DNA from: a virus
Taxonomy: Duplodnaviria > Heunggongvirae > Uroviricota > Caudoviricetes
DNA length: 4,536 bases
Reading direction: 5' to 3' (one strand)
IMG/VR virus record: IMGVR_UViG_2778261451_000003
The notes under the pieces are model-generated. The model was not told where the DNA came from. It saw only the letters and a list, made by a program, of their open reading frames with translations, and searched no databases. Of this stretch, positions 1 through 4,536 are shown one piece after another; the stretch's first letter is position 1; the number at the start of each line of letters is the position of its first letter. The translations under genes were made by a program, and so were the position numbers.

Positions 1-181
1 CAGCGAGTAGGTATATGGGATAATCGCGGATTCAGGTGCTGGTACTGAATTCACCGGGAGGCACCCGGCACCATGCACTTCAATAGATTCTCTCCACATT
101 ATGGATATTCTTTCAGAATATCCCACGCAGACTTTGTGTAAATGTTAACAAATGTGCGTTTTATTTGATCTGATTCGCTGT

Positions 182-211
182 TTGAGCGTCCAAAACAACG
201 GTATATATAAT
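182..211 (+). promoter_or_regulatory. Candidate sigma70 promoter for the first lipoprotein gene: -35 TTGAGC (182-187), 18-nt spacer, consensus -10 TATAAT (206-211)
   Basis: Motifs read directly; the -10 is a perfect TATAAT inside a TATATATAAT run, about 30 nt upstream of the ATG at 241, with a GAGGA ribosome-binding site at 233-237. Not experimentally supported. Confidence 0.4.
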
Positions 212-240
212 CCTTTACTATATGACATATGTGAGGAAAA

Positions 241-669
241 ATGGGTTTTCGTAGCGCATCAATTCTTACGTTGATTATTAGTGGGATTATTATCGGGTGC
301 ACTGATGCTGTATCGACAAATTATCATGACCGTACATCATATTACTCCGATAAAGCAATAGAGACACAGTATGTGAGTTCATCTGAACGTACTTCTGATG
401 TTAGTGAGGATATCCGTCTGTATGCCCATCAAATCAAGAGCGCCATCGAAAAACAGTTCGGGGATGCGAGTAAGTATTCAGGAAAAGAGTGTACACTGAG
501 AATGCATATGGCCCCGAATGGCCTTCTACTGGAGGTTAAAAGAGAAAGTGGAGACCTCGATTTATATCGTGAAGCGATGAATGCGATAAAGAATGCTGAT
601 ATACCTGCCCCCCCTTCGCCGGAAGTATATAAAGTATTTCAAAATGGGGTGCTGGATTTTAAACCCTGA
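241..669 (+). CDS. Outer-membrane lipoprotein with a TolA C-terminal domain III-like domain (142 aa)
   Basis: Six-frame ORF with GAGGA ribosome-binding site. N-terminus MGFRSASILTLIISGIIIGC has a positive n-region, hydrophobic core and lipobox IIGC; Cys at 298-300 is followed by Thr, not Asp, which under the +2 sorting rule predicts outer-membrane sorting. The C-terminus YAHQIKSAIEKQFGDASKYSGKECTLRMHMAPNGLLLEVK...IPAPPSPEVYKVFQNGVLDFKP aligns by eye with the recalled E. coli TolA C-terminus (YAGQIKSAIESKFYDASSYAGKTCTLRIKLAPDGMLLDIK...IPKPPSQAVYEVFKNAPLDFKP), including the terminal LDFKP. Confidence 0.8.
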   Translation: MGFRSASILTLIISGIIIGCTDAVSTNYHDRTSYYSDKAIETQYVSSSERTSDVSEDIRLYAHQIKSAIEKQFGDASKYSGKECTLRMHMAPNGLLLEVKRESGDLDLYREAMNAIKNADIPAPPSPEVYKVFQNGVLDFKP

Positions 670-819
670 TATTTATTGTTTTGTAATAAACGGTTTCGGC
701 TTAGGTTTGTTCTGACACAACTACGGCACTGAGCTAAATTTAGCGGATAGTCAGCTCTGAGCCAGTGGCGGACGTAACAACTACTATTGCTGAGATTTTA
801 ATGGATTGAGGAGCAAGAA

Positions 820-1215
820 GTGGGATTAAAGAAAATCGTTATGTTGACTTTTTGGGTCGGTTTTGTTGCGGGATGCACACCTTTACACCCTTCAGATTGC
901 CACAAAACTACTGCTACAGGTAGTTGCAGTTCAGGACGCTGGGATGATCAGGATGAATGGGGGGCGCAAGCGCGGGGAATCAGAGCTGCAATTAATGCCA
1001 AACTTGATGAGCCGCATAACTGGAAAGGGAAAAAATGCAGGTTGCATATGGAATTCTCTCAGGATGGCACGGCGTTAAAAATATCTACCAGTAACGGTGA
1101 TAAAGCCTATTGCGAAGCGATAAAGTCCGCAGCTCATAAAGCCAAATTTCCGGCCTTCAACAATCCGGAAGTCTACAGAGATTTTCAGAAATCTGGCTTT
1201 GACATGCGAGGTTAG
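820..1215 (+). CDS. Second, divergent TolA domain III-like outer-membrane lipoprotein, paralog of 241-669 (131 aa, GTG start)
   Basis: GAGGAG ribosome-binding site at 807-812, 7 nt before GTG 820. N-terminus MGLKKIVMLTFWVGFVAGC has lipobox VAGC (Cys at 874-876, +2 Thr). C-terminus KKCRLHMEFSQDGTALKISTSNGDKAYCEAIKSAAHKAKFPAFNNPEVYRDFQ parallels the KECTLRMHMAPNG...PEVYKVFQ block of ORF 241-669 and the TolA domain III CTLRIKL...ALCQAAL...VYEVF pattern. Confidence 0.75.
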   Translation: MGLKKIVMLTFWVGFVAGCTPLHPSDCHKTTATGSCSSGRWDDQDEWGAQARGIRAAINAKLDEPHNWKGKKCRLHMEFSQDGTALKISTSNGDKAYCEAIKSAAHKAKFPAFNNPEVYRDFQKSGFDMRG

Positions 1216-1340
1216 CTCTTCAATTACTATATCTCATTCATAGCAAACTGACAGATTTGATGATGTTCTATATACGAAACCTGTGATGTCAAGTCTGAGC
1301 TAATACAAATAAACATAATATCAGAGAAATACATTTTATT

Positions 1341-1364
1341 AGCTCGCTACGGCGAGCTTTTTAT
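1341..1364 (+). terminator. Intrinsic terminator closing the lipoprotein cassette: stem AGCTCGC (1341-1347), loop TACG, stem GCGAGCT (1352-1358), then T-run
   Basis: Perfect 7-bp GC-rich stem with 4-nt loop followed by TTTTT; sits 126 nt after the second lipoprotein stop and about 100 nt before the holin start. Confidence 0.6.
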
Positions 1365-1466
1365 ATTGCATCGTCTCCAGCATATATATCAATTAAGGCT
1401 CTGATTGATGTGTCTGAAAGCCTACACATAATAACTATGCCATCCGTTCCGTGCGGAGGTGAGGCT

Positions 1467-2100: not shown

Positions 2101-2634
2101 ATGAACGCAAAAATCAGATACGGCCTGTCGGCTGCCGTTCTGGCACTGATTGCCGTCGGTGCGCCCGCGCCTGATATTCTCGACCAGTTTCTGGATGAAA
2201 AAGAAGGTAACCACACAACGGCATACCGCGATGGGTCCGGCATCTGGACCATCTGTCGGGGTGCCACGATGGTGGATGGAAAACCCGTTTTTCCCGGTAT
2301 GAAACTGTCGAAGGAAAAATGCGACCAGGTCAACGCCATTGAGCGTGATAAGGCGCTGGCATGGGTGGAGCGCAATATTAAAGTACCACTGACCGAGCCA
2401 CAAAAAGCGGGTATCGCGTCATTTTGTCCCTATAACATTGGCCCCGGTAAGTGTTTTCCGTCGACGTTTTATAAGCGGCTGAATGCTGGTGATCGTAAAG
2501 GTGCATGCGAGGCGATTCGCTGGTGGATAAAAGATGGTGGGCGCGATTGCCGCATACGTTCAAATAACTGCTATGGACAGGTTATTCGTCGTGACCAGGA
2601 AAGCGCATTAGCCTGTTGGGGGATAGATCAGTGA
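2101..2634 (+). CDS. SAR endolysin (signal-anchor-release, T4-lysozyme-like muramidase, glycoside hydrolase family 24), 177 aa
   Basis: The N-terminal segment [17 protein letters not shown] is Gly/Ala-rich and weakly hydrophobic, as in SAR domains. The catalytic E-x8-D-x5-T spacing in [19 protein letters not shown] matches T4 lysozyme E11/D20/T26. Overall similarity to recalled phage 21 R and DLP12 RrrD-type lysozymes. Start has a weak ribosome-binding site. Confidence 0.9.
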
Positions 2635-3098
2635 GCAGAGTCGCCGCGATTATTTATGCTCTGGTTATCTGCATCATCGTCTGCCTGTCGTGGGCGGTCA
2701 ATCATTACCGTGATAACTCCATCGCCTACAAAGAACAGCGTGATAAAAAAGTCAGTGAGCTGAAGCAGGCGACCGCCACCATTACTGACATGCAGCAACG
2801 CCAGCGTGCTGCTGATGTACTCGATGCTAAATACACGAAGGAGTTGGCTGATGCGAAAGCTGAAAATGATGCTCTTCGGCGCAAGCTTGATAATGGTGGT
2901 CGGGTGCTCGTCAAAGGAAAATGCTCTGTGCCATCCTCAGCCGAAACCTCCAGCGCCTCCGGCATGGGCAATGATGCCACCGTCGAACTCTCTCCAGTTG
3001 CTGGACGAAACGTTCTCGGTATCCGGGACGGAATCATCAGAGACCAGACAGCACTGAGAACGCTTCAGGAATATATCAGGACGCAATGCCTTCGATGA
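2631..3098 (+). CDS. Rz: Rz i-spanin (inner-membrane spanin subunit), lambda-like, 155 aa, GTG start overlapping the endolysin stop
   Basis: From GTG 2631 (GTGA overlap with endolysin stop 2632-2634) the protein begins [39 protein letters not shown]..., close to recalled lambda Rz [39 protein letters not shown].... It has an N-terminal transmembrane segment and a coiled-coil periplasmic domain. The six-frame track's TTG 2616 start is an upstream extension. Confidence 0.9.
2851..3057 (+). CDS. Rz1: Rz1 o-spanin (outer-membrane lipoprotein spanin subunit) embedded in the +1 frame of Rz, 68 aa
   Basis: ATG 2851 preceded by AAGGAG (2838-2843). Translation [44 protein letters not shown]... has lipobox VVGC and a Pro-rich mature region, matching recalled lambda Rz1 (MLKLKMMLCVMMLPLVVVGCTSK...KPPPPPAWIMQPPP). 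Lies entirely inside Rz, the classic embedded architecture. Confidence 0.8.
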
Positions 3099-3272
3099 TA
3101 GCGATAATTTTACTCATCATCCTTCACATTTGGCTCTGTAGACAGGGTGGTGATCACTTCTGGAGTGAATCCAGATTAAACATCTCATTGCTGATGCTTG
3201 AAGTTGAGCATCTGGCGCGCGGTAAGGGGCTGCGTTGAAATAAGAGCCAGTCATTAAAAATACCTGGGTTTA

Positions 3273-3298
3273 GCCTCGCATTCGCGGGGCTTTTTATT
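3273..3298 (+). terminator. Intrinsic terminator for the plus-strand lysis operon: stem GCCTCGC / GCGGGGC (one G-U wobble), loop ATTC, then TTTTTATT
   Basis: 7-bp GC-rich stem at 3273-3279 / 3284-3290 followed by a T-run at 3291-3298; about 175 nt after the Rz stop. Confidence 0.55.
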
Positions 3299-3303
3299 GC
3301 CAT

Positions 3304-3589: not shown

Positions 3590-4000
3590 TTAGTGCGGAA
3601 ATATTTGTGTAGTGTTCTGAATGTTCTCAGTAAATAGTAATGAATTATCAAAGGTATAGTAATATCTTTTTTGTTCGTGGATATTTGTAACCCACCGAAA
3701 AACTCCTGCTTTAGCAAGGTTTCTTCTGTATTCCTGAAATGTGATCTCTCTGGATTTCAGCTTATTAGAGGTCGTTTCTATAAGATGCCTATCCTTTGAA
3801 AATTTGACAGACACAATGTTTTTTAGGCCCTTTAATAACACTGTATTATCATTTTTTAATACAATATGAACATTCTCTGTGGCTAAATAGTAAATGTAAT
3901 GTGAGACATTGTGACGTTTTAGCTCAGAATAAAACCAGTGATAGTTTAAATCGTTTCGAACTTTATCAAATATTTGTTTAAAAATGACTACCTGATCCAT
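3590..4000 (-). CDS. DUF1398 / YbcV-YdfO-like prophage protein (136 aa from the second ATG)
   Basis: Six-frame ORF 3590-4015. The second in-frame ATG (3998-4000) is preceded by GAAGG at appropriate spacing, whereas the first ATG (4013-4015) has no ribosome-binding site, so 136 aa is preferred. Markedly AT-rich coding sequence. Resembles from memory the YbcV/YdfO family of lambdoid prophage accessory genes in E. coli K-12 (DLP12, Qin); the family assignment was not verified. Confidence 0.65.
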
Positions 4001-4057
4001 AGATAAACCTTCCATGTGATATGAGGGGGCGTAGTCTGCACGATTATCTAAATTGCT

Positions 4058-4291
4058 TCAATCTGGTCTGACCTGCTTTCTGAGCAATTCAGTAATGTCA
4101 CTCTTTTCTTTGTTTGCTTCAGGCGAAACTCTTTTTTCTGAGCACAGTCTCCGGCGGCAGGCTTCAATGACCCAGGCTGAGAAATTCCCGGACCCTTTTT
4201 GATCAAGAGCGATGTTAATTTGTTCAATCATTTGGTTAGGAAAGCGGATGTTGCGGGTTGTTGTTCTGCGGGTTCTGTTCTTCGTTGACAT
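4058..4291 (-). CDS. Small ribbon-helix-helix (Arc/MetJ-like) DNA-binding protein, possibly YlcI/YnfO-like (77 aa)
   Basis: N-terminal basic tail (KNRTRRTTTRN) followed by IRFPNQMIEQINIALDQKGSGNFSAWVIEACRRRL, i.e. beta-strand then two helices as in Arc and CopG-type repressors. First gene of the minus-strand unit, immediately inside cos. Weak ribosome-binding site. Confidence 0.55.
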   Translation of the reverse strand: MSTKNRTRRTTTRNIRFPNQMIEQINIALDQKGSGNFSAWVIEACRRRLCSEKRVSPEANKEKSDITELLRKQVRPD

Positions 4292-4439
4292 GAGGTTGCC
4301 CTGTATTCAGTGTCGCTGATTTGTATTGTCTGAAGTTGTTTTTACGTTAAGTTGATGCAGATCAATTAATACGATACCTGCGTCATAATTGATTATTTGA
4401 CGTGGTTTGATGGCCTCCACGCACGTTGCGATATGTAGA

Positions 4440-4536
4440 TGATAATCATTATCACTTTACGGGTCCTTTCCGGCGATCCGACAGGTTACGGGGCGGCGAC
4501 CTCGCGGGTTTTCGCTATTTATGAAAATTTTCCGGT
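4440..4536 (+). other. cos: Lambda-type cos site: cosN with 12-nt cohesive end GGGCGGCGACCT at 4491-4502, cosQ-side sequence upstream, start of cosB-side sequence downstream (truncated by window end)
   Basis: 4441-4490 (GATAATCATTATCACTTTACGGGTCCTTTCCGGCGATCCGACAGGTTACG) matches the recalled right end of phage lambda with about one mismatch. 4491-4536 (GGGCGGCGACCTCGCGGGTTTTCGCTATTTATGAAAATTTTCCGGT) matches the recalled first 46 nt of the lambda left end. Confidence 0.85.

Follow-up and report, generated by a model that had tools for sequence, protein, structure and literature searches.

A prophage cassette with two TolA-domain-III lipoprotein genes, candidate outer-membrane decoys for Tol-dependent colicins and filamentous phages

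The stretch analyzed here (IMG/VR record IMGVR_UViG_2778261451_000003; 4,536 bases, hereafter the window) is the late region of a lambda-like Escherichia coli prophage. Ahead of its lysis genes it carries an inserted cassette with two adjacent open reading frames, ORF1 and ORF2, each of which encodes a small protein with a lipoprotein signal and a C-terminal copy of domain III of the host protein TolA (TolAIII). The reading we favor, tentatively and with slightly less than even confidence, is that both proteins are outer-membrane-tethered decoys for TolA-binding colicins and for the filamentous-phage protein g3p. It builds on observations of the fold, the lipoprotein signals, the cassette structure, the distribution and the purifying selection. 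Both frames lie where an earlier sequence-only reading of this DNA had placed them:

241-669, + strand: ORF1, 142 residues, ATG start with GAGG 4 nt upstream; lipoprotein signal, disordered linker of ~34 residues and TolA domain III copy at residues 55-142.
241-300, + strand: lipoprotein signal peptide of ORF1, read from the sequence, with lipobox IIGC and Thr at +2.
565-567, + strand: codon 109 of ORF1, TAT (Tyr) versus TGT (Cys) in relatives, the partner of the TolA Cys388 position.
820-1215, + strand: ORF2, 131 residues, GTG start with GAGGAG 6 nt upstream; lipobox VAGC with Thr at +2, a conserved linker with a Cys loop, and residues 46-131 as a diverged TolA domain III.

Both C-terminal domains match PF06519, which has a gathering score of 25 bits, ORF1 with 75.3 bits (E = 4.4e-21, residues 49-140) and ORF2 with 54.6 bits (E = 1.3e-14, residues 44-125). 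Residues 55-142 of ORF1 align with residues 334-421 of E. coli TolA without a gap and at 58% identity, and this alignment confirms the by-eye observation that the first copy ends in the LDFKP of TolA. ORF2 is ~31% identical to E. coli TolAIII (E = 5e-9). The AlphaFold2 models of both proteins reach a predicted local distance difference test score (pLDDT) of ~90 over the domain and show disorder before it. In Foldseek, the ORF1 model superposes on TolAIII structure 2x9a_B with a target template modelling (TM) score of 0.92 and the ORF2 model on 3qdp with a target TM of 0.93 and a root-mean-square deviation (rmsd) of 1.0 Å (0.8-1.0 Å for both ORFs). The proposal that the C-terminal domains are TolAIII-like was accordingly borne out for both ORFs by profile hidden Markov model and by AlphaFold with Foldseek.

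The three-strand, three-helix fold is hence that of E. coli TolA domain III (~330-421; 1TOL, 1S62, 3QDP/3QDR, 2X9A; target TM 0.92-0.93), and ORF2 and the common ORF1 allele also share its disulfide. The remainder of TolA is absent from ORF1 and ORF2, namely domain I, by which TolA is fixed in the inner membrane and coupled to TolQR, and the long helical domain II; a lipoprotein signal and a short tether replace them. Because of this exchange, the domain would sit at the opposite membrane and would not be energizable. The genes differ in setting as well: TolA is encoded in the tolQRA-tolB-pal cluster, whereas ORF1 and ORF2 lie in a prophage late region between Q/tRNAs and holin. Names of family members in public sources are all automatic ('TolA', 'colicin import membrane protein'). 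The RefSeq label of ORF1, 'cell envelope integrity protein TolA', arises because TIGR02794 is passed (70.1 versus a cut-off of 59.45) through the C-terminal 97 residues only; the cut-off of NF007065 (213) is reached neither by ORF1 (100.5) nor by ORF2 (53.7).

At the N-terminus, both proteins possess an n-region, an h-region and a lipobox (MGFRSASILTLIISGIIIGC in ORF1 and MGLKKIVMLTFWVGFVAGC in ORF2). Both lipoboxes fit the pattern [LVI][ASTVI][GAS]C and are followed by Thr at +2 (IIGC then T, and VAGC then T), as the sequence-only reading had it. No family alignment shows variation at the lipobox Cys (Cys20 of ORF1 in alignment A2), and Asp at +2, the inner-membrane retention signal of E. coli, occurs in none of the 55 clusters of short TolAIII lipoproteins described below, which makes outer-membrane targeting of both proteins likely. 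For ORF2, the start codon matters to this prediction. RefSeq starts the prophage ORF2 at ATG 841, whereby the n-region is lost; GTG 820 appears to be the better start because it is backed by the Shine-Dalgarno sequence GAGGAG, a Lys-Lys n-region and homologues with an ATG start that open with MGVKK, while ATG 841 has no such support. The plasmid copies of ORF2 (locus L003, 5995-6426; locus L004, 3444-3875) are annotated 12 codons upstream of their likely MGVKK start.

Purifying selection acts on both genes, with ratios of non-synonymous to synonymous substitution rates (dN/dS) well below 1, and we regard ORF1 and ORF2, judged by their sequences, as working genes. Compared with a 65%-identical relative, ORF1 has a dN/dS of 0.26 for its domain, compared with 0.59 for its linker. 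ORF2 is constrained to 0.08-0.12 against its plasmid and chromosomal homologues. The ORF2-family linker (877-954, residues 20-45), PLHPSxCHKTTATGSCSSGRWDDQDEWG, carries two extra cysteines and has a dN/dS of 0.10. As this constraint is as strong as that on the folded domain, the ORF2 linker is probably more than a tether and may have a function of its own.

The ligand edges of TolAIII are known from structures and mutagenesis. Beta3 is extended by a strand from TolB, colicin N or g3p, with backbone bonds at D418 and K420 (PMC4339652), while colicin A binds the opposite edge at L375-P380, K368, K379 and K396 (PMC3365938). ORF1 has a beta3 edge (VLDFKP) identical to that of TolA and a colicin A site that reads LLEVKR/H/K/K. 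Judged by these residues, ORF1 imitates TolAIII closely, with beta3 unchanged and most of the colicin A site preserved. A recent capture of the host tolA as the origin of ORF1 was considered and rejected, the protein identity being only 58%. Of the partners that the sequence-only reading listed for the domain, Pal is disputed in the literature (PMC7391070).

ORF1 and ORF2 are adjacent but share only 28% identity, belong to different subfamilies and have different relatives and separate histories. A recent tandem duplication is rejected on these grounds, so that their earlier description as tandem paralogues does not hold in this sense; the pair is, as far as the sequences tell, two acquisitions. 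The ORF1 family is narrow and confined to Escherichia and Shigella, and a 65%-identical ORF1 variant stands alone in the same slot between Q and holin (the Q-S slot), behind an AraC-type gene. The ORF2 family is broad, with 368 clusters at 78-89% identity. Adjacency is fixed in viral loci, yet the two genes do not form an obligate unit, as each type is also found alone.

The cassette itself was delimited by comparison with related phages:

81-1430: inserted cassette (moron) with both genes, 1,350 bp, from comparison with cassette-less phages.
182-211, + strand: sigma-70 promoter-like site TTGAGC-18 nt-TATAAT, 10 of 12 positions matching, a consensus match only.
1341-1364, + strand: intrinsic-terminator-like hairpin (stem 1341-1358; 7 bp, of which 5 GC) with T-run.
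1-130, + strand: 3' part of an STnc100-family small RNA (sRNA) element, directly upstream of the cassette (RF02076, 51 bits), incomplete at the window start.

PhiR49_2 and vB_EcoS-611R1 match window positions 1-80 and 1431-2873 at 94-99% identity and have 188 unrelated bp where the window has 81-1430. Since these cassette-less phages match both flanks and differ in between, the insert is 81-1430; the notion of a self-contained cassette stands, but the boundaries first proposed (160-1370) are corrected. Other elements of that proposal were recovered. The cassette is AT-richer than the lysis genes, with a GC (guanine plus cytosine) content of 38-47% versus 50-54%, and the candidate promoter and terminator are both present as consensus matches. 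The promoter-like site is the best of seven in positions 1-1700, where 3.8 are expected by chance, and by itself it is for that reason weak evidence. The hairpin (-13 kcal/mol; z = -4.1 versus shuffled sequences) is the sole terminator-like site in the same region. Because no terminator-like site lies between ORF1 and ORF2 in that scan, the two genes are probably co-transcribed. Related phages that share the conserved flanks either have or lack the insert; together with its promoter-like site, its terminator-like hairpin (again as consensus matches) and its distinct base composition, this fits the definition of a moron, with expression in the lysogen as a prediction. As for the STnc100 element, a full copy (locus L001, 5781-5971) scores 114 bits with RF02076. 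The match to the cassette-less phages ends at window position 80, within this element, and in the terminal hairpin of the element (103-123) the U-tract found in the family consensus is missing.

The window holds no Q gene, and the Q-S slot is visible only in near-identical loci, in which the gene order is Q antiterminator, two tRNAs, DUF3927, ORF1, ORF2 and holin. This order bears out the placement of the cassette between Q and holin. Positions 160-1370 are 99.9% identical to phage mEp460_ev081 and occur at ≥99% identity in 775 of 5,426 complete E. coli genomes (14%). The arrangement ORF1-ORF2-holin is fixed in 77 of 80 IMG/VR loci, the remaining three ending too early to tell, and the spacing between ORF2 and the pinholin is 255 nt in 75 of the 77. 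Only one of 50,697 GenBank phage records contains the gene. At least one of the two gene types is present in 1340 of the 5426 complete E. coli genomes, or about a quarter.

The domain is phage-encoded, as initially proposed, but it is not confined to phages: short TolAIII lipoproteins make up a large family that is also represented on plasmids and chromosomes. Of 1.84 billion cluster representatives searched with a profile, 578 matched (234 at E <= 1e-10). Among the best 150 of these 578 matches, 95 are at most 170 residues long, and ~60 of these have an N-terminal lipobox. The short TolAIII lipoproteins form at least 55 distinct clusters, and 55 of them were compared with 52 clusters of long TolA proteins. 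Both disulfide cysteines are kept in 52-53 of the 55 short clusters; the equivalent of Cys388 is kept in 52 of the 55 short and 51 of the 52 long clusters. Residues L417/D418/F419/K420 of the beta3 edge are kept at least as well in the short as in the long clusters, with D418 present in 39 of 55 versus 19 of 52.

In a scan of one genome per species, 30 loci of the ORF2 type were found, ~27 of them in named Enterobacterales species. Chromosomal stand-alone genes of this type occur in Enterobacter, Citrobacter and Serratia in varying neighborhoods, and one in Serratia lies beside GmrSD/HEPN genes. About 600 plasmids carry ORF2-type genes, including pO157-like IncF and IncK/IncI plasmids. A leading-region (early-transfer) logic for these copies was considered and rejected: the IncF copies are near psiB/hok, but the IncK copies come after the relaxase gene. 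With the ORF1 domain as query, tblastn returned 1307 plasmid records, of which 660 are from Klebsiella, and small Klebsiella plasmids (10-13 kb) account for roughly one row in four when these matches are sampled at even spacing. One of them, a 10-kb CloDF13-like plasmid of K. pneumoniae (NZ_CP033403.1, locus L137), has cloacin-type bacteriocin, immunity and lysis genes and, on the opposite strand, the following module:

L137 8137-8870, minus strand: TolAIII lipoprotein followed by a secreted TonB C-terminal domain, in tandem (PF06519, E = 2e-24; PF03544, E = 9e-11).

We also considered whether the CloDF13 proteins K and L form a TolA-like/TonB-like pair, and rejected this; the module of the Klebsiella plasmid replaces K and L. 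A 6.4-kb E. hormaechei plasmid combines a pore-forming colicin-like protein with a TolAIII lipoprotein, and on a Klebsiella IncR plasmid a TolAIII lipoprotein adjoins a thioredoxin-fold gene. Serratia genomes (L131-L133, 6001-6444) contain another TolAIII-lipoprotein subfamily, with a domain 61-67% identical to E. coli TolAIII; its gene lies directly 3' of icd, a known prophage attachment site, with prophage genes upstream in one genome.

The sequence-only reading was aware of no characterized function for such a pair, and none was found: the literature search gave no functional description (few subscription journals were covered, so an older description is possible), PHROGs places both proteins in phrog_5772 with no function assigned, and PADLOC has no match to either. 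A viral fold search in BFVD returned no TolAIII-like viral protein at E <= 1e-3.

According to the decoy reading, both proteins would probably be exported, lipidated at Cys20 (ORF1) and Cys19 (ORF2) and carried by Lol to the outer membrane, on its inner face. There, a folded TolAIII copy on a tether of 25-35 residues would hang between the outer membrane and the cell wall and would present the beta-strand-addition edges that are bound by Tol-dependent bacteriocins (group A colicins, cloacin/klebicin-type) and by the N1 domain of g3p on the energized TolA. The decoy would thus stand at the membrane where porin-threaded toxin domains and g3p first emerge and, being uncoupled from TolQR, it would capture them unproductively. 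As an outcome, the lysogen would tolerate Tol-dependent toxins and phages. Each gene would act alone, and the phage would have combined two subfamilies whose ligand ranges probably differ. Ligand binding and protection are thus what we infer, in addition to lipidation and localization.

Experiments offer a precedent. Periplasmic TolAIII reportedly gave colicin and phage tolerance in the work of Levengood-Freyermuth and colleagues in 1993. TolAIII fused to a signal sequence perturbs the envelope, as summarized in PMC6195910. Affinities would also allow a selective capture. The dissociation constant (KD) of a colicin A fragment and TolA is 1.3 µM (PMC3365938), that of colicin N and TolA is 1 µM and that of TolA and TolB is 40 µM (PMC4339652), which suggests that a decoy could catch invaders while disturbing Tol-Pal only mildly. 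The contexts of the family genes are those of cargo, namely a prophage insert, IncF/IncK/IncI plasmids, GmrSD/HEPN neighbors and bacteriocin plasmids, and they speak for a decoy as well, as does the retention of the beta3 ligand edge in ORF1 and across the short clusters.

Several points weigh against this reading. The beta3 edge bound by colicin N and g3p is the TolB site, so an abundant decoy should weaken Tol-Pal. Loss of tolA or pal sensitizes E. coli to bile salts (PMC12505904), which would make strong Tol-Pal inhibition costly in the gut. As the cassette lies within the late transcription unit, its peak expression may fall at lysis rather than in the lysogen. ORF2 possesses both cysteines of the TolAIII disulfide but no longer has the residues that contact colicin A (E/ALKIST/K/H in their place), and its beta3 is altered (GFDMRG); by sequence, it has diverged on both ligand edges. 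Moreover, ORF2-type genes have a fixed chromosomal position in Enterobacter (cloacae complex), which fits a housekeeping role too. Finally, the ORF1 of the present prophage may be less stable or weakened. Position 566 is A in the window and G in mEp460_ev081, the sole difference over 160-1370, and the resulting Cys109Tyr removes one cysteine of the conserved disulfide (TolA Cys363-Cys388), while Cys84 is kept. Codon 109 encodes Cys in all 80 IMG/VR loci; the Tyr109 allele is real but rare (WP_097680626.1, on record on two contigs).

The remaining layout of the window is as follows:

1467-1682, + strand: P21-type pinholin, with which the lysis cassette begins (PF04971, E = 1.4e-34).
1687-2037: DUF1327/YdfR gene, between the pinholin and the signal-arrest-release (SAR) endolysin.
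2101-2634: lysozyme with an N-terminus resembling a SAR signal-anchor.
2631-3098: Rz, with Rz1 nested inside.
2851-3057: Rz1 lipoprotein frame inside Rz.
3272-3300: terminator-like hairpin with T-run, 3' of the lysis genes.
3590-4291, minus strand: DUF1398 (YbcV-like) and DUF3950 (YlcI/YnfO-like) genes.
4380-4536: lambda cos region, 98.7% identical to lambda/DE3.

The DUF1327/YdfR-family gene is shared with the cassette-less relatives. The stretch 3590-4291 has a GC content of 31-43%, runs on the opposite strand between the lysis genes and cos, and looks like a second accessory island.

The immediate vicinity of the lysis genes raises the question whether the proteins help release. A tethered TolAIII would compete for the TolB N-terminus, block Pal mobilization and loosen the outer membrane, so that phage lysis would speed up, bacteriocin release would rise or more outer-membrane vesicles would form. 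We consider this unlikely, although the cassette is immediately upstream of the pinholin, SAR endolysin and Rz/Rz1 within the Q-dependent late unit, homologues occur on plasmids with colicin-release lysis genes, the TolB-binding beta3 edge is conserved, and periplasmic TolAIII has been used for leaking periplasmic proteins from E. coli (PMC6195910). The cassette is missing from sister phages that share the lysis genes, and it comes with a promoter-like site of its own as well as a terminator ahead of the holin. The gene of the Klebsiella plasmid is on the other strand and far from the bacteriocin-immunity-lysis genes, and most family members stand alone on chromosomes or conjugative plasmids without a nearby lysis function. 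Furthermore, the affinity between TolA and TolB is weak (40 µM).

Rather improbable is the explanation that the ORF2-type proteins are ordinary enterobacterial envelope lipoproteins with a housekeeping interaction (e.g., TolB, CpoB) that were picked up by phages and plasmids. The 30 loci of the species-representative scan and the conserved position in the Enterobacter cloacae complex are in line with it, and the very strong selection on ORF2, linker included (0.08-0.12; 0.10), suggests a specific conserved partner. Nonetheless, neighborhoods differ among genera, the genes are patchily distributed and often on mobile elements (~600 plasmids; 14% of complete E. coli genomes with such prophages), and the close mimicry of E. 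coli TolAIII by ORF1 would be left unexplained. That the genes are non-functional fragments, decaying captured pieces of tolA labelled TolA by annotation pipelines, is highly improbable in spite of the RefSeq name of ORF1 and its changed conserved cysteine, as both frames are intact with lipoprotein signal peptides that are new relative to TolA, dN/dS lies far below 1, at least 55 clusters share this architecture and the DNA shows 99.9% conservation in 775 genomes.

The favored decoy reading has parallels among known systems. Cor (phi80/N15/mEp167), Llp (T5), TraT (F) and Bor of lambda are small accessory outer-membrane lipoproteins that benefit the host, and several of them block the entry of phages and colicins. 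Like ORF1 and ORF2, they are carried by temperate phages or plasmids, but they are unrelated to them in sequence (phrog_5772, no PADLOC match). The proposed mechanism is also different: Cor and Llp inactivate the receptor FhuA, whereas ORF1 and ORF2 would mimic a periplasmic host hub domain. While accessory outer-membrane lipoproteins of temperate phages and plasmids are known, such host mimicry appears to be undescribed for them. Engineered periplasmic TolAIII (Levengood-Freyermuth 1993; Wan and Baneyx 1998, as cited in PMC6195910) is likewise not linked to TolQR; those were soluble, overexpressed laboratory constructs, whereas ORF1 and ORF2 are natural, predicted to be lipid-anchored, under selection and mobile. 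A further relative in concept is the secreted TonB C-terminal domain that neighbors the TolAIII lipoprotein on the Klebsiella plasmid (L137 8137-8502). It is also an isolated energy-transducer domain exploited by bacteriocins and phages, but instead of a lipobox it carries a Sec signal peptide; it comes from another family, and the window does not contain it. It is possible, though we hold this generalization with some doubt, that mobile elements of Enterobacterales widely carry a so far unrecognized class of 'import decoys', i.e., isolated C-terminal domains of TolA (lipid-anchored) and, on some bacteriocin plasmids, of TonB (secreted). Such import decoys would catch bacteriocins and filamentous phages by their translocation epitopes before energized TolA or TonB is reached.

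Tol-dependent colicins, klebicins, cloacins and filamentous phages all rely on TolA domain III. Tol-dependent bacteriocins and filamentous phages are narrow-spectrum antibacterials in development as well as laboratory tools. If the decoy reading is true, a new kind of resistance determinant would have to be reckoned with, based on mimicry of a host hub instead of receptor loss or an immunity protein, and it would spread via prophages and plasmids that pathogenic E. coli, Shigella and Klebsiella often carry already. With about a quarter of complete E. coli genomes having at least one such gene, import decoys could then be behind some of the multi-colicin tolerance that is so far unexplained in natural isolates, and proteins of the ORF1 and ORF2 type may serve as natural probes of the interplay of TolA, TolB and Pal at the outer membrane.

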